Source: an uncultured Alphaproteobacteria bacterium (GTDB taxonomy: Bacteria > Pseudomonadota > Alphaproteobacteria > RF32 > CAG-239). Taken from it: DNA of 64,000 nt. The notes under the pieces are model-generated. The model was not told the DNA's origin. It made no database searches and was given only the letters and a program-made list of their open reading frames with translations. The position numbers and the translations under genes were made by a program. Location of the stretch: the NCBI GenBank assembly GCA_944391335.1, contig CALXTF010000005.1, positions 7,076-71,075 of the forward strand. The letters are read 5' to 3'. This document shows, one piece after another, positions 10,961 through 50,153 of the stretch (position 1 is the stretch's first letter; each line of letters begins with the position of its first letter).

Positions 10961-11515
10961 TTACTGAAAACGCCATGTAATTTCGTTTTCATTATCCATT
11001 TGACAGGTCTCTATTGCTTGACTATACAACATGGGAAGTTTTTGAGCATTCTTTCCTTGCCATGTAAAATAGGTGTCATTTACTTTAATATGCAATAAAT
11101 GGGAGTTATGCCCATTAACCCAATCAATCATTGCTAATTCAACACAGGTTGTGTATGGAAGATCATAAAAAGTAATATCATATGCACTATCATCCATATT
11201 TGAAGTGATTTCAACTTCACCGTTATAAGCATGATATAAATCATTGTCACTAATCATATCACCGGGAATTATTCTCTCTTCAATTAAGAGACTTGGATCT
11301 GAATTTGATAATAATTTATAATTTTCCGCCGCGGAAAAACGAAAATCTATATTTTTTTGAAGATCTTTAATTTGTTGTGTAATTCTACTCATTCGATATT
11401 TATCAAGCATTGTGTTGATTAAACTGACAATTGAAATTCCCAACATACAAATAATGCCAATATACATTATTGATTCAATTAATGTATAACCGCTTTCATT
11501 TATTTGTTTTTTCAT
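10961..11515 (-). CDS. Type IV pilin / pseudopilin-like protein with a prepilin-type N-terminal cleavage/methylation domain
   Basis: Class III signal 'MKKQINESG|YTLIES', with Gly at -1 and Glu at +5, followed by a hydrophobic helix. Two C-terminal Cys residues could form a disulfide loop. Confidence 0.75.
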   Translation of the reverse strand: MKKQINESGYTLIESIMYIGIICMLGISIVSLINTMLDKYRMSRITQQIKDLQKNIDFRFSAAENYKLLSNSDPSLLIEERIIPGDMISDNDLYHAYNGEVEITSNMDDSAYDITFYDLPYTTCVELAMIDWVNGHNSHLLHIKVNDTYFTWQGKNAQKLPMLYSQAIETCQMDNENEITWRFQ

Positions 11516-12202: not shown

Positions 12203-12254
12203 AAACCTCAAAGGATTGAGGGGTTAGGGAAAATCCTTTGAGGTTTAGTTTTTG
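12203..12254. terminator. Bidirectional terminator hairpin between convergent genes
   Basis: 15-bp perfect stem, 12203-12217 with 12232-12246, and a 14-nt G-rich loop. The T-run is at 12249-12253. Confidence 0.7.
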
Positions 12255-12275
12255 TGGAAAATATATTAAAATAAT

Positions 12276-12572
12276 TTATTCTTCTTCAATATAACCTTCT
12301 TCAGTTACTGTTTCATCTAAAGTCATCGTGCCATTATTATTCATCATGGATGAATTTGAATTATGGGTTGATGTAGATGTACCGGCAGCTGTTGAAGTCG
12401 GAGAATTTTGACTGTTAGAATCAGCCGTTGTTACTCCATAGCTTTCTTCAACCATCAAGACACCGTCAGAGGTTTGTGCTGCATTATTTGTATTTTGCGC
12501 AACAGCATTACCAATGTAGTAGCCTGCGGTTGATAGTAAAGTAAACATCATTAATAGAGGTGTTTTTTTCAT
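12276..12572 (-). CDS. Hypothetical secreted Ser/Thr/Asn-rich protein
   Basis: Signal peptide 'MKKTPLLMMFTLLSTAG...AVA', a low-complexity S/T/N body and an acidic tail. No family recognised. Confidence 0.45.
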   Translation of the reverse strand: MKKTPLLMMFTLLSTAGYYIGNAVAQNTNNAAQTSDGVLMVEESYGVTTADSNSQNSPTSTAAGTSTSTHNSNSSMMNNNGTMTLDETVTEEGYIEEE

Positions 12573-35150: not shown

Positions 35151-35259
35151 CTTTTTTACTCCTTATTTGAATAATAAACAATATTATTAGTTTAATTTAT
35201 AAATTTCAATACTAAATACTCTAGCAGATATTTCTGTCATTTGTATGAGGAGTAATAAA

Positions 35260-35538
35260 ATGGAAAATCCTGCCGTTAAAAAAGGTTCTAAATTATTTAA
35301 ATTTTTAAGCAATAAAAAACGATTAGAAGTTGTGTATATACTTCGCGACGGGGAAAAAAAAGTTAGAGAATTAGAAAAAATCGTTGGTCTAAGTCAATCG
35401 GCATTATCGCAACATTTGGCTATTTTACGCACAGCGGGAATTGTGGAAACCAATCGTCAGGCTCAAACTGTTTTTTATTCCATCAAGAGTCGTGATGTCA
35501 TTTATTTATTAAAATTGTTGGATGATATGTATAATTAA
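35260..35538 (+). CDS. ArsR/SmtB-family transcriptional regulator
   Basis: Winged helix-turn-helix: 'VRELEKIVGLSQSALSQHLAILRTAGIVETNRQAQTVFYSI'. The ATG at 35260 is preceded by AGGAG. Confidence 0.8.
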   Translation: MENPAVKKGSKLFKFLSNKKRLEVVYILRDGEKKVRELEKIVGLSQSALSQHLAILRTAGIVETNRQAQTVFYSIKSRDVIYLLKLLDDMYN

Positions 35539-35593: not shown

Positions 35594-37780
35594 TTAAGCT
35601 GTTTGATTTGCTTCATCTGTTTCGTTTAATCCGAGTTTTTCCAACATATTATCATTAATATCCTCACGTTGGGCAACGATCCATTCCGGAACGTTGGGAG
35701 CGGTTGGAATTTTTGCCATTGCGCGCATTTTGGGATCCAAATACCAACGTGGCGAATCGGCAAGTATCGGACGATCAATATAACTTTGAAAAAGAACGAC
35801 CTGCTTAAGCATGGGTAAGCTTAATAATTGTGATGCTGTAATAACCGAAACTCCCTGTAATTGATAACTAACATTCTTGGAAAAAGGGTTCGCTTGCTTA
35901 GAAAATCCTTCTTGTTTGGAATAAGAAGATGTTTGTACGGTTTTATTACCGATCATTTTAGAAAAACGTTGAGCTGTGACTTCATTATTTTGAGATAAGA
36001 TAATTTTGCATGCTGTTGTTGAAATAACAGTTTCCAAATCATCTTTGCCATATTTACCCGAAATTTGTCCTAAGTCTTGTCCAATCAATAAGTATGAAAC
36101 TTTTTGACCACGACCAACAGCAGGACCGTCAATAACGGCTTTAAGTTTTGGCATTTGCGGAAATTCATCCAAAACAAACAAAGCAGGGAAGGGACCCATT
36201 TTCCCATCGGTGGGGTTAACATAATTAGGCGGATTGGATATCAAATATGAAGACATTAATTCGATAAAAATACCGCTAATAACGCCTAATGCACGAGCAT
36301 CAACCTGATTAATCGATAAATATACAGAAATGGGTTTCCATTCTCCGGTAATTGGATCTTTTATACCTCGCAAATCTTTAAATTGTAAATCGGAAAAACT
36401 GGTACGAGAGACTACCGCTGAGTTTTTAAATACACCAATACCTGCAAATGCGGTAGACATAACAGATCCACGTTCTTTATCCGGCATGTTGCTTAAAGTC
36501 GATAATTCTGTATACGCCCGTTGGGAATAACCATATTTTCTTGCTTCTTCAATAGCCTCATCAAGTAAATCGCGCATAGGATCAGCCATTGCCGCCATTT
36601 GATCGCCTTCGGCCAATCGCCGCTTTATTTCTTGTCCTTGTTTAATTTGAGCTTCAGTCAGCCATTCCATAATCATAGCAATACAAGCTTCACGTCCCAC
36701 CCATTTTTCGGGAAGTAAATTCCATGTACCTATCGGGACATAATTTTCAACAGTCAATTTGTTGTTGTGTAAATCATTGATAGCTCGAGAAGCAGCTGGA
36801 TTATGCAATTTAATATCCTCGTAATAACCTTCTAGAACTTGTTTATCTTCATCATCAAGTTTTCCTTCATAAATTTTCCCGATAAAATAATCATTAGCGC
36901 GAGCTTTTTCACATTTAGAGGCTATAAAGTGGATAAAACCGGTTAAGGCGGCGCGTCCTGTTTGCGACCAGTGGGGATCAGCTCCTCCTTTAGGATCTTC
37001 CACTAAAATATTGCACATAGAATCGATATACATATCTCGTCCAGGACCTGGGGCTGGCAATGCTGTTGGGGATAAAGGATTCCAACTTGGATAATATATG
37101 CCTTCAGCCGGATTGTCTTCAGCACCCCAGTTAATTATAAATACAGGACCTTCTTTAGCGCGAGCGCCGGAAGTATTAAAACATAATTCCGGTTTAGGAT
37201 CATTAATGACAAGACTTAAGCCTTTTGAATTAAATATAGTCGGAATAACAACGCCGGCGGTTTTACCGGTTCCCGGAGGGGCACAGCATAAAGTTGATAA
37301 TGTTTCCGGTAATTTTAAATAATAACCTTTAAATTTACCTATAACCATGCAAAAACCATCCAAGAGTTTCATGGCTTTAATGTCTTTTAAGGTGGCAATA
37401 CGACCGGAACCATGAATGTTAGATTGAAAACGATAGGGATTTGTAACTGCTCCGATAATTAAACCGGCCGGTAAAGCAATAATCGGTAAAATAGGAAGCC
37501 ACAATGCAAAACTAAAGGAACCATGATGATTGCTTATTTGTTGCATCCAATTCCAATAACGTGAAAATAAATAAGATGGGTCACTTGCTATCATTCCCAT
37601 AAATTTACTGACGTTATCCATGCTTTCTTTAGAAATTCCGTTACCAATGATATATCCTAGCGGCATAGAAATAACGGCAAAAAATATTGTGACCAGAAGT
37701 GTAAAGATAACAGTCAACGACATCCATTGCACTGCGTGATCATATTCTTCCCATTCTTCTCCTCTTTTTTGTAATCCCAT
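35594..37780 (-). CDS. Type IV secretion coupling protein (VirD4/TraG family)
   Basis: Two N-terminal TM helices. 'HGSGRIA' (compare HGSARWA). Walker A 'APPGTGKTAGVVIPT'. 'DPHWSQTGRAAL'. Walker B-like 'LFVLDEFPQMPKL'. 'LLIGQDLGQISGKYG'. AAGAGG ribosome-binding site. Confidence 0.88.
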   Translation of the reverse strand: MGLQKRGEEWEEYDHAVQWMSLTVIFTLLVTIFFAVISMPLGYIIGNGISKESMDNVSKFMGMIASDPSYLFSRYWNWMQQISNHHGSFSFALWLPILPIIALPAGLIIGAVTNPYRFQSNIHGSGRIATLKDIKAMKLLDGFCMVIGKFKGYYLKLPETLSTLCCAPPGTGKTAGVVIPTIFNSKGLSLVINDPKPELCFNTSGARAKEGPVFIINWGAEDNPAEGIYYPSWNPLSPTALPAPGPGRDMYIDSMCNILVEDPKGGADPHWSQTGRAALTGFIHFIASKCEKARANDYFIGKIYEGKLDDEDKQVLEGYYEDIKLHNPAASRAINDLHNNKLTVENYVPIGTWNLLPEKWVGREACIAMIMEWLTEAQIKQGQEIKRRLAEGDQMAAMADPMRDLLDEAIEEARKYGYSQRAYTELSTLSNMPDKERGSVMSTAFAGIGVFKNSAVVSRTSFSDLQFKDLRGIKDPITGEWKPISVYLSINQVDARALGVISGIFIELMSSYLISNPPNYVNPTDGKMGPFPALFVLDEFPQMPKLKAVIDGPAVGRGQKVSYLLIGQDLGQISGKYGKDDLETVISTTACKIILSQNNEVTAQRFSKMIGNKTVQTSSYSKQEGFSKQANPFSKNVSYQLQGVSVITASQLLSLPMLKQVVLFQSYIDRPILADSPRWYLDPKMRAMAKIPTAPNVPEWIVAQREDINDNMLEKLGLNETDEANQTA

Positions 37781-37792
37781 TTTTTTTACCTC

Positions 37793-39196
37793 TTAACTCA
37801 TACTGCGAATTAGTTTAATGACTTTATCCAATTTTGAAGCAGAAAGGGCTTTTTCCGCTTCTGGTAAAGTACGGGCAAATAGTTTTATTTCTTTTGGGGT
37901 CCCTCTGTCAATGCGCGTGACATTGATATTGAGTTCTTCCCATGTTTCAAACATATCCTCGGCGTTAATAATATTCCCGATTTGAATAATAACGAATGCG
38001 TCAACCATAAAATTCATTTCTGCCATATCTAGTTTATCAAGTAAAGCTTGTTTAGCAATATCTATTTTTCTTACAGGGGATATTCTGTGTGAACTTTCTG
38101 AAAACCATAAAGGTTCTTCATCATTAAATCTTTCTTCATCGGCCAACCAATCTCCAGGTTCTCTATCCAACATACACAAGCAGATACGATTTTCTGATAT
38201 ACCTATATAATCTATAACTGTATTTTTTATAGTGACGCGATTTATAACTTCATATCCTTTTTGTTTAATGATATCCATACAGGTTCCGGTTGGCTGGCGG
38301 GTAGAAATGGATACCGAAGCCGTATTTTTTTCTTTATATCGATTTTGATTTTCAGAAGCACGTTCTTTGGTTGATTGGTTATAATTTTGATTTGAACCTT
38401 GATTTCGATCTGTTCTTTTTGTTTCTCTTACATCTATGTTTTTCTCACGGCGACGTTCATGAGTATCTCTTCGATTTTCTCTGAAACGAATATTTTCTTC
38501 TCTATGTTCTTGGGGATGTATTTCATCTCTGTTTTTATCTGCTTCTTTTTTCTCTTCTTTTTGTGGACCTATATCAAAGCTGTCTATATCAAAGTCTATA
38601 TCATCAAAATCGTCATCAAATTTAAACAAAGCGTGTTCAAATTTTTGGGGTTCTGGTTGATTTTCGATAAGAGTTGTTGAACGGCGTACAGGTTTTATGG
38701 ATGGGGTATGAACAGGCATCACCGGTGTAACTACCGGAATATTAATAGGAGAAGCCGGTGCTTCTATTTGATTGTTTACGAGTGGACGTATGGCGCGGGG
38801 GCGAATTTCCTTATAAGATCTTTTTTTCTTAATGGGAGTTACGCCTGTATTAGTTGTAATAATTTTAACTGGATTGTAAAATAGAGTTTTAATTAACCGC
38901 CAGGGTAGACTGAGAACAAAAAAGATCATTTTTCCCCATGAGATTAAACTTAAAGCTATCCAACCTGTAAACCACAGAGGAATAAATGAAATAATTATTA
39001 AGACAAAAGCCCATTCTTTAGGTTCGGAAATAACCCAAGAGTTACACCATAAATCCCATGCTATTTGCCAATGTTCCATATTAAGAATATCAAAATGCCA
39101 GTTGCGGAGCATAATAACCCTAATGCTTTCCATAAAGAAAACACTCCATAGAAGTCCGACAAGTATGATACGGATAAGTATTAATAAGGGTTTCAA
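37793..39196 (-). CDS. Hypothetical membrane protein, cluster gene E. It has an N-terminal 'WHF' membrane domain, a Pro-rich and charged disordered linker, and a globular C-terminal domain.
   Basis: TTG start with AAGGAG 7 nt upstream. Three hydrophobic segments. 'PVVTPVMPVHTPSIKP', then 'DDDFDDIDFDIDSFDI' and an R/E/K-rich stretch. The C-terminal ~175 aa look ordered. It ends 13 nt before the T4CP start. Confidence 0.6.
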   Translation of the reverse strand: MKPLLILIRIILVGLLWSVFFMESIRVIMLRNWHFDILNMEHWQIAWDLWCNSWVISEPKEWAFVLIIISFIPLWFTGWIALSLISWGKMIFFVLSLPWRLIKTLFYNPVKIITTNTGVTPIKKKRSYKEIRPRAIRPLVNNQIEAPASPINIPVVTPVMPVHTPSIKPVRRSTTLIENQPEPQKFEHALFKFDDDFDDIDFDIDSFDIGPQKEEKKEADKNRDEIHPQEHREENIRFRENRRDTHERRREKNIDVRETKRTDRNQGSNQNYNQSTKERASENQNRYKEKNTASVSISTRQPTGTCMDIIKQKGYEVINRVTIKNTVIDYIGISENRICLCMLDREPGDWLADEERFNDEEPLWFSESSHRISPVRKIDIAKQALLDKLDMAEMNFMVDAFVIIQIGNIINAEDMFETWEELNINVTRIDRGTPKEIKLFARTLPEAEKALSASKLDKVIKLIRSMS

Positions 39197-39272
39197 TTAT
39201 ATCTCCTTGCTTATTTTTAGCATTTTACAACAAGAAATGTTAACAAGTGTTTTACATTATAGCATACTTTTT

Positions 39273-39797
39273 TTATTTGTCACCTGATTCTATTTTTTTA
39301 TGAAACGCTTGATTTTTTTGCTCAAAATTACTGCGGATTTTATTTGCGTTAAGGTCCTTTTTTTCTGTCGCTTGCGGCATTCGGCTTGAAATCATTTCTT
39401 CCATCATTTGTTGCGGGGTTTGTTTATTTACTTTTCCGCCGCCCATATTTTTTAATACAATATGCTCTGGTTCACTGGCATATTTGCGATTAATATAGTC
39501 GTTATACCAAAATATCGGGAACAGTATAATTTTGATGTAAGGTAATTTTTGTGCCTTTTTTAAGCCTAAAAACCAACAAGGAATGACCAGTATTAACATT
39601 ATCAAAAACATATATTCCGAAAATTGGTCGATAACACCGCCCCTATTCCAAAATTCGCTAATAATCAACCAGTAACGTTTTTCAAAAATATTAAAATGCC
39701 AAAAATAATTCATAATAAAATACACAAACCACAAGTAGAATGTTGTCCAACCTATGAAAATGAATATCCAACGCAAATACTTAATAAATTTTTTCAT
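39273..39797 (-). CDS. Hypothetical membrane protein, cluster gene D, whose N-terminal domain is paralogous to gene E
   Basis: 174 aa. The start lies 2 nt after the stop of gene C, with GAGGTA upstream. The first ~80 aa align without gaps to gene E, with W33-H34-F35 in both. Confidence 0.6.
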   Translation of the reverse strand: MKKFIKYLRWIFIFIGWTTFYLWFVYFIMNYFWHFNIFEKRYWLIISEFWNRGGVIDQFSEYMFLIMLILVIPCWFLGLKKAQKLPYIKIILFPIFWYNDYINRKYASEPEHIVLKNMGGGKVNKQTPQQMMEEMISSRMPQATEKKDLNANKIRSNFEQKNQAFHKKIESGDK

Positions 39798-39799
39798 AA

Positions 39800-41485
39800 T
39801 TATCTACCTCTATAGGGTTGATACAAATTATTTTTATTTGTTGTGTTAGATTTGTTATTTGCAAGGGTATTAGTTTTGTTTTTTGTATTATGTTTTGCTT
39901 TTATCTGTTCTATTCTTTTTTTGGTAGGACTGTTATTGTGATTGTTGTATTTGGTATTATTGTCATTTAACCTTTCGTTTATGTTATCTAACTCTTTTTG
40001 TTTTTTTTGATCAAATTTTTTATGACTTTTTGCTTCATCGCACAAATCACGAGGAAGTGGACGGTTCTTGTTTTTGTTATCTTTTTTATTGTCTCTATCG
40101 TCTCTTTCATCTTCTTTGTCGTCTCTATCCTCTTTTTCATCCTCTTTATCATCTTTACCATTGTCATGATGTTTCTGATTGAGAGCTTTTTTTATGGCGT
40201 CTTCATATTCTTTAAGTTCTTTGTTGGGAGCAGGATTTCCTCCTAGCTCGGCTATTTGAGAATTGGCAATATTTTCTTTAACTCTTTTTAAAGCTTCTTC
40301 GGCCAATTTACTATAATGTTCGAGTTTTTCTTCTTTAATGATTTTGACTGATTTACCGTTTACTTTATTATCTTTTTCTTGATTCGTTGCTTTAGTGATT
40401 TTACTGACATTATCATTGAATGTGTTTTTAAATAAACTGTCAATGTCTTTTCCATCCAGAGATTGTTGATCACGAGTCATCGCGTCTAAAATTTGGCTGG
40501 TGGATATTTTAAGAGCTGTTTTTTCGACTCGGGTAATATATCTGCTATTATCTCTTTCTCTTTTAGCAAAGTCAGCACCGATTTTGCATAAATTTTCTTT
40601 AGCATCAAGCATAGCTTTGAGGCGTTTTTGAGTAGCTTCATATAAATCTTTTTTACTGCCGTCATTTTTTAACTCTTGCATTTTTTTATCGGCTATTTGC
40701 GGATCTTTTTTAACATCTTCTTCAGTTATACCAAGAGTTTGGTATGCTGCTTCTTTATTAGTTTGATATACTAAAGAAGTCTCTATGATTTCTTTGGTTT
40801 GAGGGTTTTTATCTGCTTGCAGTATATCTATACCCATAATATTGCATAATCTTTTAGCATCATTAGCAGAAGTTGCCGTTAATTTACCTTCAACGATCAT
40901 TTGACCGAGAGATTTAATTTCTTCCTCTCGTCTTTTAGCGCGTTCATCAATGGCTTTATCTTCTTGATCGCATAATTTATAGACTTTTTCAGAATTTTTA
41001 CTAAATTTACTATTTTCAAATTGTTTTTTGTCTTCTTCAGATAATTCTTTGGCATCTTTGTATCTTGCTTTTAGCCAATAATAGCCATTGGCTAATCCCT
41101 CTTCAAGCTTTTTGCCTGCCCAACAAAATAGAGCAATCAACCATTCATTATACATATAGTTGATTATATCATCTTCTTTAAATTTATCAGGATCTTCTTC
41201 TTGCTTATGATAATTGTTATTATGAGTTTGTTTGGTTTGACCGCTGTCGCCGTTTAGTTTTTTTTGTTCCTGTTCTAAAGCATGTCTTTCATCAGCGGTA
41301 AGCATTCCTTTTAAGGAGTTAGAGATTCTTTGCTGTCTTTCAGACGCGCTTTCATTAACCGACAAAGGATTTTTATTGGCAGGAGCGAGACCGTCAACTT
41401 TTCCCTCTGCGAGTCCTCCGACTTTTTCTGGTTGAGGAGCTGTATAAGTTTCTGTTGTTGTACTTTTTATATTGTCTTCTGCCAT
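39800..41485 (-). CDS. Hypothetical highly charged K/E/D/N-rich protein, cluster gene C
   Basis: 561-aa ORF with AAAGGA upstream. Long predicted helical/coiled regions. Acidic repeat 'KDDKEDEKEDRDDKEDERDDRD'. Asn/Lys-rich tail. No family recognised. Confidence 0.55.
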   Translation of the reverse strand: MAEDNIKSTTTETYTAPQPEKVGGLAEGKVDGLAPANKNPLSVNESASERQQRISNSLKGMLTADERHALEQEQKKLNGDSGQTKQTHNNNYHKQEEDPDKFKEDDIINYMYNEWLIALFCWAGKKLEEGLANGYYWLKARYKDAKELSEEDKKQFENSKFSKNSEKVYKLCDQEDKAIDERAKRREEEIKSLGQMIVEGKLTATSANDAKRLCNIMGIDILQADKNPQTKEIIETSLVYQTNKEAAYQTLGITEEDVKKDPQIADKKMQELKNDGSKKDLYEATQKRLKAMLDAKENLCKIGADFAKRERDNSRYITRVEKTALKISTSQILDAMTRDQQSLDGKDIDSLFKNTFNDNVSKITKATNQEKDNKVNGKSVKIIKEEKLEHYSKLAEEALKRVKENIANSQIAELGGNPAPNKELKEYEDAIKKALNQKHHDNGKDDKEDEKEDRDDKEDERDDRDNKKDNKNKNRPLPRDLCDEAKSHKKFDQKKQKELDNINERLNDNNTKYNNHNNSPTKKRIEQIKAKHNTKNKTNTLANNKSNTTNKNNLYQPYRGR

Positions 41486-41571
41486 TTTTTTATCCTTTAA
41501 GCAAGAGTTTATTTATTACTGATATTCTAGCATATGTTTTTTGTTTTGTCTATATTTTTTTCTATTGTTTT

Positions 41572-42486
41572 TTATATTTTGAGTTTTTTCAGAAAATCTC
41601 CGATTTTTCTATTGTATATCAATCCATCGCGGGGGGTTGGTTTAATCAGACCAAAAAAGCGGGGTTTGATTTTGTCAAATTCAATCGGTGCAAAAATAGC
41701 CGGATTGGTCGTTAAGGCTTTAAAAGAACCTTCGGGATCTTTTAGAGCTGTTTTAAAGTAACCATTAATTAATCGTTCGGCGTTAATGGGAAATTTTTTC
41801 TTTTCTATAGCTTCTATGTATTTACGAGCGCGTTCTCCTCGGCGGCGGTGTTCGGCGATGATTTCTTCTTCTATTTTACGATGTTCATATTCTAAGAATC
41901 TTTTTTCATAGGCTATTTCGCAGCCTTCGATTTCAAATAATATTTCCACATAAGAAACAACCGCCAACTGTAAAAGATCATCGGTTTGTTGTTCCGCAAA
42001 ATCAAGTAATTCTTCATCAGAAGCATTTGGTTTTATTTTGATAATATCATCTTGGTATACTTCAAACATAACATCCCAGCCCTGGAGAACATCAAGGCTG
42101 ATAAGGTTGCCAAGTCCTTGAGTATAGTGAGGATATAAAACTTGGGCTTTGATGTGAAATACGGGAATTTTTATTTGGTTAGCATCAGCAATTTGAGTGA
42201 TGGCGTCTACATAATTACGGTAGGCAAGATACAGTTTTTGTTCAGCTAATTCTAGTGCGTCGACCACTTCTTCATCATTTGCGTTTTGATTTATAGGCGT
42301 TGGTTCGGGTTCTTCTAAGAAAAGGCGTGTGTTATTTTTTTCTTCTTCAATATTTTTTAATTCGGATTGGATGAAATCATCGAGTAAATGATTAAACTCA
42401 TCCTCATTGTCTGTGGATGAAGTCTCCATTTTACTGGGAACATCGGCTGTCAATTTTTGAATAATATCATCAGTATCTTCGCTCAT
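41572..42486 (-). CDS. Hypothetical acidic cytoplasmic protein, cluster gene B
   Basis: The ATG at 42486 is preceded by GAGGTA. Acidic N-terminal ~80 aa followed by a mixed alpha/beta body. No family recognised. Confidence 0.55.
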   Translation of the reverse strand: MSEDTDDIIQKLTADVPSKMETSSTDNEDEFNHLLDDFIQSELKNIEEEKNNTRLFLEEPEPTPINQNANDEEVVDALELAEQKLYLAYRNYVDAITQIADANQIKIPVFHIKAQVLYPHYTQGLGNLISLDVLQGWDVMFEVYQDDIIKIKPNASDEELLDFAEQQTDDLLQLAVVSYVEILFEIEGCEIAYEKRFLEYEHRKIEEEIIAEHRRRGERARKYIEAIEKKKFPINAERLINGYFKTALKDPEGSFKALTTNPAIFAPIEFDKIKPRFFGLIKPTPRDGLIYNRKIGDFLKKLKI

Positions 42487-42494
42487 TTTATACC

Positions 42495-42776
42495 TCAATT
42501 TGTCGTAATTGTTGAAATAATTTCATAATTTTGTGGGTTTAAAATAAATATTTTATCTTTATTGGTGTCTTTTACTAATATGTATAGTGCGTTTTGTGTC
42601 GCGTTTATTTGTTTAATTCTGCCGTCTTTTGCTTCAGGAAGTGTAATTTGGGGAGGAATTGTCGATTTTGAAGACTTAAATCCTCCTGCCAATTGTCCGA
42701 TTATGAATAATAATCCAAAAACAATTAGAAATGTCATAATAAAAACGATTATTTTCAGTATTTTTAGTTTTATCAT
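42495..42776 (-). CDS. Hypothetical small single-pass membrane protein, cluster gene A
   Basis: 93 aa with an N-terminal TM helix ('IIVFIMTFLIVFGLLFIIGQL') and a short beta-rich ectodomain. Its stop lies 9 nt upstream of the gene B start. Confidence 0.5.
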   Translation of the reverse strand: MIKLKILKIIVFIMTFLIVFGLLFIIGQLAGGFKSSKSTIPPQITLPEAKDGRIKQINATQNALYILVKDTNKDKIFILNPQNYEIISTITTN

Positions 42777-46571: not shown

Positions 46572-49500
46572 ATGTCAGAAGTGAAAATGAAAATGATGGA
46601 TGGTAACGAAGCCGCTGCTTCTGTTGCCCATCGTATGAATGAAGTCTGCGTCATTTACCCGATTACCCCGTCTTCTCCGATGGGTGAGTGGGCCGACGCT
46701 TGGTCTGCCGCAAAGCAGAAAAATCTTTGGGGTGTCGTTCCCGAAGTCCAAGAAATGCAATCTGAAGCCGGTGCCGCAGGTGCTTGCCACGGTTCGGTTC
46801 AAGCAGGTGCTTTGACAACAACCTTTACCGCTTCGCAAGGTTTGTTGCTCATGATCCCAAATATGTATAAAATTGCCGGTGAGTTGTCTCCGTTTGTAAT
46901 GCATGTCGCCGCTCGTTCTTTGGCTTATCATGCTTTATCTATTTTTGGCGACCATACCGATGTGATGAGCTGCCGTCAAACCGGTTTTGCCATGCTTGCT
47001 TCAAACTCTGTTCAAGAAGCTCATGATATGGCGGCTATTGCTCAAACTTCTACTTTGCGTTCACGCGTTCCGTTTATGCACTTCTTTGACGGTTTCCGCA
47101 CTTCGCATGAAATTAAAAAAATTAAAGTCTTGTCTGATGACGATTTAAGAGCAATGCTTGAAGGTGTTGACTATACTTTCAATGTTAAACACGCTTTACG
47201 TCCGGAAGCTCCGGTTATCCGAGGTACGGCGCAAAATCCAGATGTGTTCTTTCAGGGGCGTGAAGCCTGCAATTCGTTCTACAATAAAGTAGAAGGTATT
47301 GTTCAGGAAGAAATGGACAAGTTTGCTAAAATTTCCGGTCGTCAATATCATGTCGTGGATTATGTTGGTGCAGCTGATGCTGAACAAGTTATCGTTATTA
47401 TGGGTAGCGGCGGTGAAACTGTTGAAGAAACTCTTAATTACCTTAATGCTCAAGGTGCAAAACTCGGGGTCATGAAAGTTCACCTCTATCGCCCGTTCCC
47501 TGAAAAATCTTTCTTGAAGGCTTTGCCTAAGTCGGTTAAAGTTGTTTCCGTTCTCGACAGAACCAAAGAATCGGGCTCTATAGGTGAACCGTTATATTTG
47601 GATGTCGTTGCCACCCTTACCCAAGCTTTTGCTCGCGGCGAATTGACTCTTATGCCTAAAATCGTCGGTGGCCGCTATGGCTTGTCTTCTAAAGAATTTA
47701 CTCCGGGTATGGTTAAAGCCGTATTTGATAACGGTTTTGCCGCTCAGTCGGTAAATGGTTTTTCTGTCGGTATTAACGATGACGTTACTAATAAATCTTT
47801 AGCTTTCGATGATTCTATTGATACCGAACCTAAAGATGTCGTTCGTGCCGTATTCTATGGCTTGGGTGCTGATGGTACCGTCGGTGCTAATAAAAACTCT
47901 ATTAAAATTATTGCCGAAGATGCCGGAAAATACGGTCAAGGTTATTTCGTTTACGACTCTCGTAAATCAGGCTCTATGACAACTTCTCACTTACGTTTCT
48001 CAGATAACCCGATTAAATCCGCTTATTTGATTAACAAAGCTGACTTCGTTGCTTGCCACCAGTTCCCATTCATGAATAAAGTGGACATTTTAAAAATTGC
48101 TAAACCTGGTGCTACTTTCTTGCTTAATGCTCCTTATGATGCTTCCGAAGTATGGAATCACTTGCCAATCGAAGTTCAAGAAGAAATTATTGCCAAAAAG
48201 TTGAATTTCTATAGCATTAACGCTGTCGAAGTTGCTCGTGAAACAGGTATGGGACAACGGATTAACACGGTTATGCAGACCTGTTTCTTCGCAATTTCCA
48301 ACATCTTGCCAAAAGATGAAGCTATTGCTCAAATTAAAAATGCAATTAAAAAAACTTACAGCAAGAAAGGTGATGCTATTGTTCAAAAGAACTTTGCCGC
48401 CGTTGATGCTTCTTTGGCTCACTTGCATAAAGTTGAATATCCGAGCGAAGTTACTTCTACATTCCATCGTCAGGCTCCGGTTCCTGCAAATGCGCCTGAA
48501 TTCGTTAAGAAACTGACGGCAGAATTGATTGCCGATCGTGGTGATCAATTGCCTGTTTCCGCATTCGCAGAAGTTGTCGATGGTACTTGGCCGACAGGTA
48601 CAACTCAATATGAAAAACGTTGTATTGCTACCGAAATTCCTGTTTGGGATCCTGATACTTGTATTCAATGCGGTAAATGCTCGATGGTTTGTCCGCATGG
48701 TGTCATTCGTATGAAGGTTGCTTCTGAAGAAGAGTTGAAAAATGCGCCTAAAGGCTTTAAGTCCGCTCTATACAAAGGTAAGGAATTCGCCGGTAAACAA
48801 TTTATTTGGCAAATGTCGCCTGAAGATTGCACCGGCTGTGGTATCTGCGTAAGTGCTTGTCCGGCTAAAAATAAAGCCGATCCAAGCAAAAAAGCCATCA
48901 ATATGGATCATATTGAAAATCATTTGGAAGAACAAGTCGCTTGCTGGAATTTCTTTGAAACTTTACCTTATGTAAAACGTACCGAAGTTGAGAAGAAACT
49001 GCCTAAGACTACTCAAATGATTCAACCTTTGTTTGAGTTTTCAGGTGCTTGTGCCGGCTGCGGTGAAACTCCGTATGTTAAACTTTTGACCCAGTTGTTC
49101 GGTGATCGTATGGTTGTTGCCAATGCTACCGGTTGTTCTTCTATTTACTCCGGTAACTTGCCGACTACTCCTTATGCTAAGGATGAAAAAGGTCACGGTC
49201 CGGCTTGGGCTAACTCTTTGTTCGAAGATAACGCCGAATTCGGTTTGGGTATGAGATTTTCTATCGATCAACAAACTTCTTTTGCGAAAAAGTTGCTCGA
49301 AGATTTAAAAGAATCCATCGGTGCCGAATTAGTTGAAAAAATCTTGAACAACCCGCAATCCAACGATGCCGAAATTGATGCTCAACGCGATAATGTCAAA
49401 GTCTTGCGAGAAAAACTCGCAGGTTTGAACAGTCAAGAAGCTAAGCACTTGAACGAATTGGCCGATTACCTGATTAAGAAATCTGTTTGGATCTTGGGTG

Positions 49501-50153
49501 GTGACGGCTGGGCTTATGATATCGGCTTCGGCGGTTTGGATCACGCTATTGCTTCCGGTAAGAATATCAATATCTTAGTCATGGATACAGGGGTATACTC
49601 CAATACCGGCGGTCAACAGTCTAAAGCTACCCCGATGGGCGCTTCTGCTAAATTTGCTACTGCAGGCAAGGCTTTGCCAAAGAAAGATTTGGGTATGATT
49701 GCTATGTCTTACGGTAACGTCTATGTTGCTCAAATCTCCGTCGGTGCAAACGATATGCAGACCATTAAGGCTTTGAACGAAGCTGAAGCTTATGATGGTC
49801 CGTCCTTGATTATTGCTTACTCTCACTGTATTGCTCAAGGCTTTAACTTGGCAGATGGTTTGGAACACCAAAAGAGTGCTGTTGATACAGGCAGCTGGCC
49901 GCTTTATCGTTATAATCCTGAAAACGTTAAAGAAGGAAAAGCTCCGTTGATGCTTGACTCTAAGGCTCCTAGCAAACCATTGTCTGACTATATGTCCAAC
50001 GAAACTCGTTTCCAAGTTGTCAATAAGATGAACCCGGAACGTTATGAAACCTTGCTTAACAAGGCTCAAGAAAATGTTAAGGAAAAACGCAGCTTGCTTG
50101 AACATATGGCTGAGTATAAGGTAGAAGAAGACGAAACTTCCGCTGCCGAATAA
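46572..50153 (+). CDS. nifJ: Pyruvate:ferredoxin (flavodoxin) oxidoreductase, single-chain PFOR
   Basis: 1193 aa. 'MDGNEAAA..A....EV..IYPITPSSPM' N-terminus. Two 4Fe-4S ferredoxin motifs, 'CIQCGKCSMVCP' and 'CTGCGICVSACP'. TPP-binding 'GGDGWAYDIGFGGLDH'. Confidence 0.96.
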   Translation: MSEVKMKMMDGNEAAASVAHRMNEVCVIYPITPSSPMGEWADAWSAAKQKNLWGVVPEVQEMQSEAGAAGACHGSVQAGALTTTFTASQGLLLMIPNMYKIAGELSPFVMHVAARSLAYHALSIFGDHTDVMSCRQTGFAMLASNSVQEAHDMAAIAQTSTLRSRVPFMHFFDGFRTSHEIKKIKVLSDDDLRAMLEGVDYTFNVKHALRPEAPVIRGTAQNPDVFFQGREACNSFYNKVEGIVQEEMDKFAKISGRQYHVVDYVGAADAEQVIVIMGSGGETVEETLNYLNAQGAKLGVMKVHLYRPFPEKSFLKALPKSVKVVSVLDRTKESGSIGEPLYLDVVATLTQAFARGELTLMPKIVGGRYGLSSKEFTPGMVKAVFDNGFAAQSVNGFSVGINDDVTNKSLAFDDSIDTEPKDVVRAVFYGLGADGTVGANKNSIKIIAEDAGKYGQGYFVYDSRKSGSMTTSHLRFSDNPIKSAYLINKADFVACHQFPFMNKVDILKIAKPGATFLLNAPYDASEVWNHLPIEVQEEIIAKKLNFYSINAVEVARETGMGQRINTVMQTCFFAISNILPKDEAIAQIKNAIKKTYSKKGDAIVQKNFAAVDASLAHLHKVEYPSEVTSTFHRQAPVPANAPEFVKKLTAELIADRGDQLPVSAFAEVVDGTWPTGTTQYEKRCIATEIPVWDPDTCIQCGKCSMVCPHGVIRMKVASEEELKNAPKGFKSALYKGKEFAGKQFIWQMSPEDCTGCGICVSACPAKNKADPSKKAINMDHIENHLEEQVACWNFFETLPYVKRTEVEKKLPKTTQMIQPLFEFSGACAGCGETPYVKLLTQLFGDRMVVANATGCSSIYSGNLPTTPYAKDEKGHGPAWANSLFEDNAEFGLGMRFSIDQQTSFAKKLLEDLKESIGAELVEKILNNPQSNDAEIDAQRDNVKVLREKLAGLNSQEAKHLNELADYLIKKSVWILGGDGWAYDIGFGGLDHAIASGKNINILVMDTGVYSNTGGQQSKATPMGASAKFATAGKALPKKDLGMIAMSYGNVYVAQISVGANDMQTIKALNEAEAYDGPSLIIAYSHCIAQGFNLADGLEHQKSAVDTGSWPLYRYNPENVKEGKAPLMLDSKAPSKPLSDYMSNETRFQVVNKMNPERYETLLNKAQENVKEKRSLLEHMAEYKVEEDETSAAE

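Follow-up and report, generated by a model that had tools for sequence, protein, structure and literature searches.

Organization of the locus

A 64-kb stretch of contig CALXTF010000005.1 (positions 7,076 to 71,075 of the forward strand; assembly GCA_944391335.1), from an uncultured alphaproteobacterium of the RF32/CAG-239 lineage, carries a run of six genes that ends in a type IV coupling protein (T4CP). We refer to the whole 64-kb stretch as the window, give positions within it, and letter the six genes A to F, F being the T4CP. An earlier note, made from the sequence alone, had described six co-oriented minus-strand open reading frames (ORFs), the last of them a T4CP of the VirD4 type. The ORF listing bears out the former, and the Pfam domains and quoted motifs found in F bear out the latter.

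All six genes lie on the minus strand. A (42495..42776) encodes a 93-residue single-pass membrane protein and is divergent from rluD; B (41572..42486) encodes a soluble protein of 304 residues counted from its ATG, or 308 if an upstream TTG is used; C (39800..41485) encodes a 561-residue protein rich in K, E, D, and N; D (39273..39797) encodes a 174-residue membrane protein; E (37793..39196) encodes a 467-residue membrane protein that is the T4CP's conserved partner; and F (35594..37780) encodes the 728-residue T4CP itself, a member of the VirD4/TraG family. The cluster is flanked by xseB, ispA, and arsR on one side and by rluD and rpoH on the other, and its G+C content is 0.33 to 0.39, compared with ~0.34 for the window.

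Three junctions are tight, with 2 nt between C and D, 12 nt between E and F, and 8 nt between A and B when B is counted from its ATG, and at each of them a GAGGT Shine-Dalgarno sequence overlaps or immediately follows the upstream stop codon. This is consistent with the translational coupling in three pairs that had been proposed from the spacing, and the A/B junction suggests that A and B are co-translated in the window family. The B-C and D-E gaps are wider (86 and 76 nt) and hold the best promoter-like sites in the region, the number of sites returned there by the promoter/terminator scan being not above chance.

Synteny and conservation

When one genome of each GTDB species was scanned, 398 species proved to have a relative, and the conservation figures given here come from the best 80 of these 398, in which the T4CP is 73 to 94% identical to F. 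The order rpoH-rluD-A-B-C-D-E-T4CP, whose conservation in related genomes the earlier note had left to be checked, is retained in all of the 80 species genomes in which the locus is long enough. The downstream flank (arsR, xseB, ispA) is retained in the nearest genera only, and it differs between genera while B-C-D-E-F stays intact.

In 69 of 69 loci, identity is higher for the T4CP than for either RpoH or RluD. Relative to the window proteins, the median identity is 77% for the T4CP, 72% for RpoH, 65% for RluD, 49% for B, 47% for E, 36% for A, 33% for D, and ~30% for C, for which tblastn covered at least 70% of the query in 9 of the 80 loci only. Because the synteny is the same throughout and the T4CP surpasses RpoH and RluD in every comparison, we read the T4CP locus as vertically inherited core DNA rather than mobile DNA. 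By these alignments the T4CP is a vertically inherited core gene under strong constraint, neither a recent insertion nor part of a decaying element.

A homologue search with F alone was dominated by relatives of ~93 to 100% identity and returned no distant ones. An identical T4CP is present on 17 metagenomic contigs from human-gut-type samples, and the relatives are filed under, among others, “Azospirillum sp. 51_20,” “uncultured Alphaproteobacteria bacterium,” and “Candidatus Scatocola faecigallinarum.” The host is an uncultured, low-GC alphaproteobacterial group of the gut and rumen.

Two loci with full rpoH-rluD-A-B-C-D-E-T4CP synteny are filed under other names, L053 (JAISVX010000003, “Lactobacillaceae bacterium”) and L085 (CAVBCV010000020, “Lachnospiraceae bacterium”). 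Given this alphaproteobacterial gene order, the contigs or the whole bins look misassigned.

Search for secretion, conjugation, and mobility genes

Neighboring genes were annotated with Pfam in three overlapping 20-kb stretches of the same or near-identical contigs, which left positions ~1 to 960 and the part from 21.5 to 25.6 kb of the window uncovered. These annotated neighbors, spanning most of the 64 kb, are all housekeeping genes, with no VirB, Trb, or Dot protein, relaxase, or integrase among them; no tRNA was found in the window, and no Rfam RNA family within 34 to 44 kb. Queries for VirB2, VirB4, VirB6-like, VirB8, VirB9, VirB10, and VirB11 proteins, taken from operons that contain the closest canonical VirD4s, gave zero tblastn matches in the whole window and in 95 related loci (1.79 Mb in total). 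The reported absence of mating-pair formation (Mpf), relaxase, integrase, and tRNA genes from the window is thus upheld by Pfam annotation, the tRNA scan, and tblastn. Proteins A to E fell into no VirB, Trb, Dot, or Tra family in comparisons with Pfam, NCBIfam, PADLOC, PDB sequences, and Foldseek. PADLOC gave a marginal mad8 match for F (0.0015) and none for A to E; since it offered only this marginal match, a defense-system reading was dropped.

The locus does not resemble an integrative and conjugative element or a mobilizable element: there is neither relaxase nor integrase among the annotated neighbors and no tRNA, its position is fixed in 80 species, and its G+C content is host-like. The last two observations also agree with the proposal, made at the outset, that the cluster is not a recent insertion. 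A T4CP without an adjacent Mpf or relaxase gene is nonetheless what stays behind in some degraded elements, and mobilizable elements can carry a T4CP without a type IV secretion system (T4SS) (PMC4027160). On these grounds the cluster could have come from an integrated conjugative or mobilizable element that lost its Mpf and relaxase genes and is now decaying. We find this hardly credible, because the ORFs are intact and occupy the same place across 80 species, the T4CP is conserved beyond RpoH at 73 to 94% identity, the Walker motifs are invariant, and the host-like composition comes with no integrase, tRNA, or relaxase. As far as sequence comparison can tell, the conservation data already contradict a remnant.

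The coupling protein

F matches three Pfam families, T4SS-DNA_transf (PF02534, E = 1.6e-58), TraG-D_C (PF12696, E = 1.1e-23), and TrwB_AAD_bind (PF10412, E = 2.7e-17), with bit scores of 199.1, 84.0, and 63.2 against gathering cut-offs of 20.1, 22.0, and 20.5, respectively. Its N-terminus has two transmembrane (TM) helices at residues ~20 to 45 and ~91 to 112 (hydropathy peaks at 20 to 38/31 to 49 and at 91 to 109), followed by the nucleotide-binding and all-alpha domains. The motif HGSGRIA lies at residues 123 to 129. The Walker A region (residues 167 to 181, APPGTGKTAGVVIPT; 37238..37282, minus strand), with its core PPGTGKT at 168 to 174, is near-invariant in the 80 orthologues, as is the VLDEF (residues 536 to 540) of the Walker B region VLDEFPQMPKL (residues 536 to 546; 36143..36175, minus strand). 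The cytoplasmic part is almost invariant among the same orthologues, and the membrane stalk is the least conserved portion. F shows every hallmark that the sequence of an active T4CP should have and is apparently an active ATPase.

F fell under every NCBIfam equivalog cut-off (VirD4, TraG, TraD, CD1115). The best match, conju_CD1115, scored 146.9 bits where 250 are required, and VirD4 (PRK13897) scored 121.5 where 728 are required; the DotL/IcmO family was absent from its 11 NCBIfam matches. A PDB sequence search gave nothing usable. On these profile scores, F is a distinct subfamily of the VirD4/TraG family that belongs to no named orthologue group. It also carries a clade-specific insertion of ~57 residues (residues ~297 to 354; 36719..36892, minus strand), which was delimited by aligning F with the VirD4s of Erythrobacter and Microvirga in MAFFT. 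The insertion sits between two PF02534 matches of F, with a gap in the hidden Markov model (HMM) alignment at profile positions 297 to 354; it is highly conserved in the clade and missing from the closest canonical VirD4s.

Those closest relatives, among 72,556 plasmids, are VirD4s of alphaproteobacterial megaplasmids from Erythrobacter aureus, Sphingosinicella, and Microvirga (33 to 37% identity, E-values down to 1e-106); IncP TraG is just 24.6% identical to F. Surroundings were read for two of them, and both are the final gene of a virB-type operon. The order is VirB2, VirB4, VirB8, VirB9, VirB10, VirB11-like ATPase, VirD4 in Erythrobacter and VirB8, VirB9, VirB10, VirB11-like ATPase, two small hypothetical ORFs, VirD4 in Microvirga. 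Because its closest relatives end ordinary virB operons, F descends, in our reading, from a VirB/D4-type system. A 171-residue ORF 5' of the Microvirga virD4 was considered as a homologue of D and ruled out, as the two have no similarity.

A conserved pair of E and the T4CP

A profile of E, searched against 1.84 billion representative proteins, matched 423 representatives at E <= 0.001, and genomic context was read for seven E homologues at varied distances from the E of the window. Two of these loci are from the window family: L090, with the full rluD-A-B-C-D-E-F order, and L089, with B-C-D-E-F on a short contig. With the window family included, there are five types of context in which E stands directly 5' of a T4CP, at spacings of ~1 to 115 nt, and the more distant E-linked T4CPs are 48 to 58% identical to F. 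The pair at L094 has a spacer of ~1 nt and a T4CP 51% identical to F over the 300 residues present; that at L096 (58%, 9 nt) lies between a porin gene and unknown genes, that at L097 (49%, 8 nt) between bamD and thyX, and that at L098 (48%, 115 nt) between dsbA and an LDcluster4 gene. The ~57-residue insertion is found in four of the five contexts (the window family, L096, L097, and L098), the L094 sequence ending before the insertion site. HMMs of A, B, C, and D detected nothing beyond the E N-terminus at L094, L096, and L097, A to D were not found at L098 by tblastn, and none of these four loci has a VirB homologue.

E lies directly upstream of F in every lineage with this type of T4CP, whatever the neighbors. 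Because the pair recurs in other contexts without A to D, we regard E plus the T4CP as the core unit. Judged from the gene contents of these loci, the module is E together with the insertion-bearing T4CP, to which the window family has added B, C, and D. The six-gene cluster of the earlier note therefore stands as a syntenic arrangement but not as a set of six equal genes.

Three smaller observations concern these loci. An apparent 1164-residue E-T4CP fusion at L014 (8579 to 12058) was rejected as an artefact of a masked run of N that joins both genes. Downstream of the pair in L096 (13590 to 16803) are five small genes, for products of 299, 143, 206 (Sel1), 183, and 192 residues, that have no known role or carry Sel1 repeats and that might be counterparts of B to D in that lineage or cargo. 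L095 and L098 come from one sample (SRR28624437), which holds a stand-alone E-like gene and an E-T4CP pair on separate contigs; these could represent two organisms or a single genome with two E paralogues.

The partner protein E

The N-terminal membrane domain of E (residues 1 to 115; 38852..39196, minus strand) has three to four helices with many invariant Trp residues. Helices were predicted at 2 to 33, 40 to 51, 59 to 83, and 87 to 115 by AlphaFold2 (AF2), for which models were built from database homologues, and hydropathy peaks fall at 4 to 28 and 64 to 97. The domain is followed by a basic juxtamembrane motif, SYKEIRPR, which by the positive-inside rule would place the C-terminus in the cytoplasm. 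The middle of the protein consists of a Pro-rich variable linker, an acidic-aromatic linear motif (residues 186 to 208, FEHALFKFDDDFDDIDFDIDSFD; 38573..38641, minus strand), and a disordered basic stretch. In alignments of 32 and of 58 orthologues the motif is conserved as F.H.LFKFDD..DDFDFDIDSFD while neighboring residues vary; its predicted local distance difference test (pLDDT) score is ~50, within a disordered linker that is mostly below 55.

The C-terminal domain (residues 305 to 467; 37796..38284, minus strand) contains the invariant motifs GDWLADEERFNDEEPLWFSESSHRISPVRK and GNIINAEDM. Its AF2 model has block-mean pLDDT values of 56 to 97, mostly above 85 and ~56 to 60 over an invariant loop at 350 to 370, and an alpha-beta-beta-beta-alpha-beta-alpha-beta-alpha-alpha topology that includes the alpha-beta-beta-beta-alpha-beta core of restriction endonuclease-like folds. 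Foldseek against the PDB ranked N.BspD6I first (E = 1.2e-3, probability 1.0), then chains of the R2 reverse transcriptase/endonuclease, BstEII, and Card1, all at marginal E-values; retroviral integrase cores came lower (E = 0.03 to 0.5), and in BFVD the domain matched a phage “Endonuclease Like Protein” (9e-3). Pfam NERD appeared below threshold in 21 of 58 E orthologues (best E = 0.0044). In single scans, 8 of 10 members matched it at 13.4 to 17.1 bits (cut-off, 22.1), the matches spanning positions ~10 to 110 of the 111 in the model; the window's own E gave no NERD match in a Pfam scan. These marginal Foldseek E-values and the consistent sub-threshold Pfam matches point to a divergent NERD/PD-(D/E)xK-like domain. 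A DDE/RNase H-like reading was ranked under the restriction endonuclease/NERD reading, which has the better E-values and the Pfam support. PDB sequence searches of E, as a single sequence and as a profile, returned nothing usable.

NERD proteins (PF08378) share with E the alpha-beta-beta-beta-alpha-beta core and are approached by near-full-model, sub-threshold matches, and an N-terminal TM anchor is reportedly common among them. E differs from them in its low scores (13 to 17 against 22.1 bits), in having Glu for the catalytic Lys, and in a long invariant acidic loop (DWLADEE...WFSE...SPV) inserted after strand 3. The D...(D/E)xK triad is incomplete: the orthologues always have D329, in strand 2, and D344, where strand 3 ends, but E346 occupies the Lys position (D344-R/K-E346). 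Neither D329 nor D344 is conserved across the wider domain family. Universally conserved are instead a loop that follows strand 3, DWLADEE...P.WFS...SP, and the residues N..D...W that follow strand 4. Because Lys is replaced by Glu and the acidic residues are not kept in the wider family, nuclease activity of E is doubtful. A literature search found no association of NERD with a coupling protein, and tblastn with the E C-terminal domain and with B found no match on any of the 72,556 PLSDB plasmids.

The domain also occurs elsewhere. The motif GDWLADEERFNDEEPLWFSESSHR(I/V)SPV is near-identical over 28 residues in two giant proteins of 1513 and 1565 residues, in which the E domain takes its place in the order TPR-[E domain]-Roc-COR-A-COR-B-TIR, and the domain is further found N-terminal to an AAA ATPase (the proteins concerned are P0445, P0461, and P0503). 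Because of its presence in TPR-Roc-COR-TIR proteins and beside an AAA ATPase, we regard it as a mobile, unannotated domain, and the near-identical motif flags the family to which it belongs.

Proteins A to D

A belongs to Pfam DUF6476 (PF20082, E = 3.1e-9). This single-pass protein, encoded next to rluD, is absent beside the E-T4CP pairs of other lineages and is probably a bystander rather than a component. D is a paralogue of the N-terminal membrane domain of E (BLASTP, 2e-13) with a short polar tail; it was detected in 77 of the 80 loci but does not accompany E-T4CP pairs in more distant lineages.

B begins with an acidic, disordered segment bearing the motif DDEFExLLNxFIxSEL, followed by an all-alpha core at residues ~70 to 300 (mean pLDDT of the AF2 model 83.5, core above 90). 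It has no PDB sequence or Pfam match, and comparison of the model with the PDB by Foldseek gave no fold match (best E = 1.6), so that the predicted fold appears to be new. At the C-terminus is a conserved, strongly basic stretch of 35 residues with a net charge of +5 to +9. Substrates of VirB/D4 systems, such as the effectors of Agrobacterium and Bartonella, have positively charged C-terminal signals, and the tail of B resembles these translocation signals.

The C slot is filled in every locus by a low-complexity protein of 427 to 740 residues, and in the nine loci with sufficient tblastn coverage identity is 24 to 34%. C is, to judge by these values, fast-evolving; it has no Pfam, NCBIfam, or PADLOC match. 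Column conservation across 65 orthologues leaves a single well-conserved segment (residues ~100 to 125, KFKEDDIINYMYNEWLIALFCWAGKK; 41111..41188, minus strand), a hydrophobic/amphipathic helix.

The T4CP had been described as the only recognizable member of the cluster. Its partners do lie outside the VirB, Trb, Dot, and Tra families, but E has a NERD-like domain, A is a DUF6476 protein, and D is a paralogue of the E membrane domain. That the six genes are not one system at all, with only E and F linked and A to D unrelated syntenic neighbors in a family of low rearrangement, would fit the separate Pfam family of A, the lack of A to D beside E-F at L096, L097, and L098, and the promoter-like sites in the B-C and D-E gaps; synteny alone, which rpoH and rluD share to the same degree, proves little. 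We consider this quite unlikely, as D is paralogous to the E membrane domain, and D and B were detected only beside the T4CP in the loci examined (the B profile matched 371 proteins, as 90%-identity clusters, at E <= 0.001, most of them of unread genomic context). Coupled Shine-Dalgarno sites at the 2-nt C/D and 8-nt A/B junctions, and a downstream flank that changes between genera while B-C-D-E-F remains intact, also speak for a connection.

Comparison with known systems

The VirD4s of MPF-T megaplasmids (Erythrobacter aureus and Microvirga sp. VF16) share with F the Pfam domains, the two-TM N-terminus, and the Walker A and B motifs. They close virB2-B4-B8-B9-B10-B11, whereas F is core-chromosomal, has no virB gene within 10 kb, carries the ~57-residue insertion, and is always preceded by E. 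A conserved, vertically inherited VirD4 in a reduced, AT-rich, host-associated alphaproteobacterium is also a feature of the rvh T4SS of Rickettsiales, the genes of which are split over several chromosomal sites and vertically inherited. There, virD4 follows virB8-B9-B10-B11, whereas F follows B-C-D-E, a set without VirB homologues.

In Legionella, the icmP(dotM)-icmO(dotL) gene order places the gene of a partner with N-terminal TM helices and a cytoplasmic domain directly 5' of the T4CP gene. DotL-DotM had been invoked as a parallel, and the Dot/Icm coupling complex (DotL with DotM, DotN, IcmS/W, and LvgA), with its small adaptors, is one in the layout of the genes but not in homology. No Pfam, NCBIfam, or PDB sequence match to DotM, DotN, IcmS, IcmW, or LvgA was found; no DotM, DotN, IcmSW, or other Dot/Icm chain was among the 50 best PDB Foldseek matches listed for the E and B models; and F is of the VirD4 type, not DotL.

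HerA-NurA and Thermus TdtA with its nuclease are pairs of a pumping ATPase and a nuclease. The likeness to E-F, a hexameric pump of the FtsK/HerA superfamily with a partner of nuclease fold, is one of analogy: the partners are non-homologous, nuclease activity of E is in doubt, and the membrane topology is unlike. New here are a T4CP-centered module, its undescribed partners, and its location in the core genome, unlinked to Mpf genes. Literature searches on the secretion systems of RF32/CAG-239, on orphan T4CPs, and on T4SS genes in this group found nothing relevant.

Proposed mechanism

We propose an inner-membrane machine built around F, as a VirD4-family hexameric ATPase, and its dedicated membrane partner E. 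In such a machine, E, and in the window family its truncated paralogue D, would dock through their Trp-rich helices onto the transmembrane stalk of the T4CP, and this docking would hold the cytoplasmic NERD-like domain and acidic FDFD motif of E beside the all-alpha domain and insertion face of F. The domain and motif could then serve as a substrate receptor or processing subunit, the role taken elsewhere by relaxosome proteins or by DotM/IcmSW. B, with its acidic N-terminus, putative new fold, and basic tail, and the fast-evolving C would be family-specific adaptors or cargo. We put at about even the chances that the substrate is handed on to a VirB-type channel whose genes lie at another chromosomal site. 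We favor such a channel because the closest relatives of F close virB operons, because a T4CP alone cannot cross the outer membrane, and because rvh genes are dispersed.

Several observations weigh against this proposal. No Mpf gene was found within 10 kb of the T4CP in ~85 species or in the 64-kb window, so that the T4SS it requires is hypothetical. The nuclease-like domain of E suits a role in nucleic acid handling better than that of a protein-effector adaptor. At L093 and L095, two still more distant E homologues are surrounded by housekeeping genes and have no T4CP within 10 kb, and the E family is for this reason not strictly tied to a T4CP.

A stand-alone machine, independent of any T4SS, in which the T4CP and E process and pump nucleic acid at or across the inner membrane without a VirB channel, would account for the absence of Mpf genes from the vicinity of the pair in five contexts and ~85 species. 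An obligatory partner with a restriction endonuclease/NERD-like fold would suit such a machine, as would the extreme conservation, which is that expected of a core cellular function; the T4CP insertion and E and B, without homologues on 72,556 plasmids, would mark a departure from conjugative and effector T4SS biology. On the other side, the replacement of the catalytic Lys by Glu and the lack of conservation of the acidic residues in the wider family make nuclease activity doubtful, and the closest relatives of F are ordinary VirD4s; we know of no T4CP that has been shown to translocate a substrate without a channel. On balance we think a stand-alone machine possible but rather unlikely; it might serve to export, import, or donate DNA or to process it in a membrane-coupled manner, by analogy with HerA-NurA or with Thermus TdtA and its nuclease. 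Slightly less probable again is that the clade lacks any type IV secretion channel and that the VirD4-derived ATPase and NERD-like E act as a self-sufficient machine for nucleic acid (or protein).

T4CPs have so far been known solely as gatekeepers of conjugative and effector type IV systems, in which their partners set the export cargo. The subfamily described here is among the most conserved core genes of widespread uncultured Alphaproteobacteria of human and animal guts, and it comes with a previously undescribed set of partners: a NERD-like membrane protein, a protein of predicted new all-alpha fold, and a hypervariable protein. If its T4SS is dispersed over the chromosome, as we favor, the module would be a new kind of coupling complex, and these gut bacteria would be secretion-competent and would interact with their host or with neighboring cells. 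If there is no T4SS, the VirD4 motor would have a new function, as the first T4CP outside a T4SS, and this would be categorically new.

Other genes of the window

The remaining annotated genes on the left side of the window include nrdR, nusB, def, fmt, ffh, rimM, trmD, rne/rng, ftsQAZ (dcw), mraY, and an RND efflux pump. The sole pilus-related hint in the window is also there, a 184-residue protein (10961 to 11515) with a weak Pfam match to PilS (type IV pilin-like), encoded between an outer-membrane beta-barrel gene and dksA. On the right side are genes for pyruvate:ferredoxin oxidoreductase, ftsY, mlaD, ABC transporters, and ligA. The pyruvate:ferredoxin oxidoreductase (46572 to 50153), of 1193 residues, indicates an anaerobic lifestyle of this alphaproteobacterium. 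The arsR gene (35245 to 35538) is intact in the window and shortened in some strains with an identical T4CP (L001, L002, and L005, ~12246 to 12520), where a 37-residue ORF is called and tblastn covers only 71% of the query.

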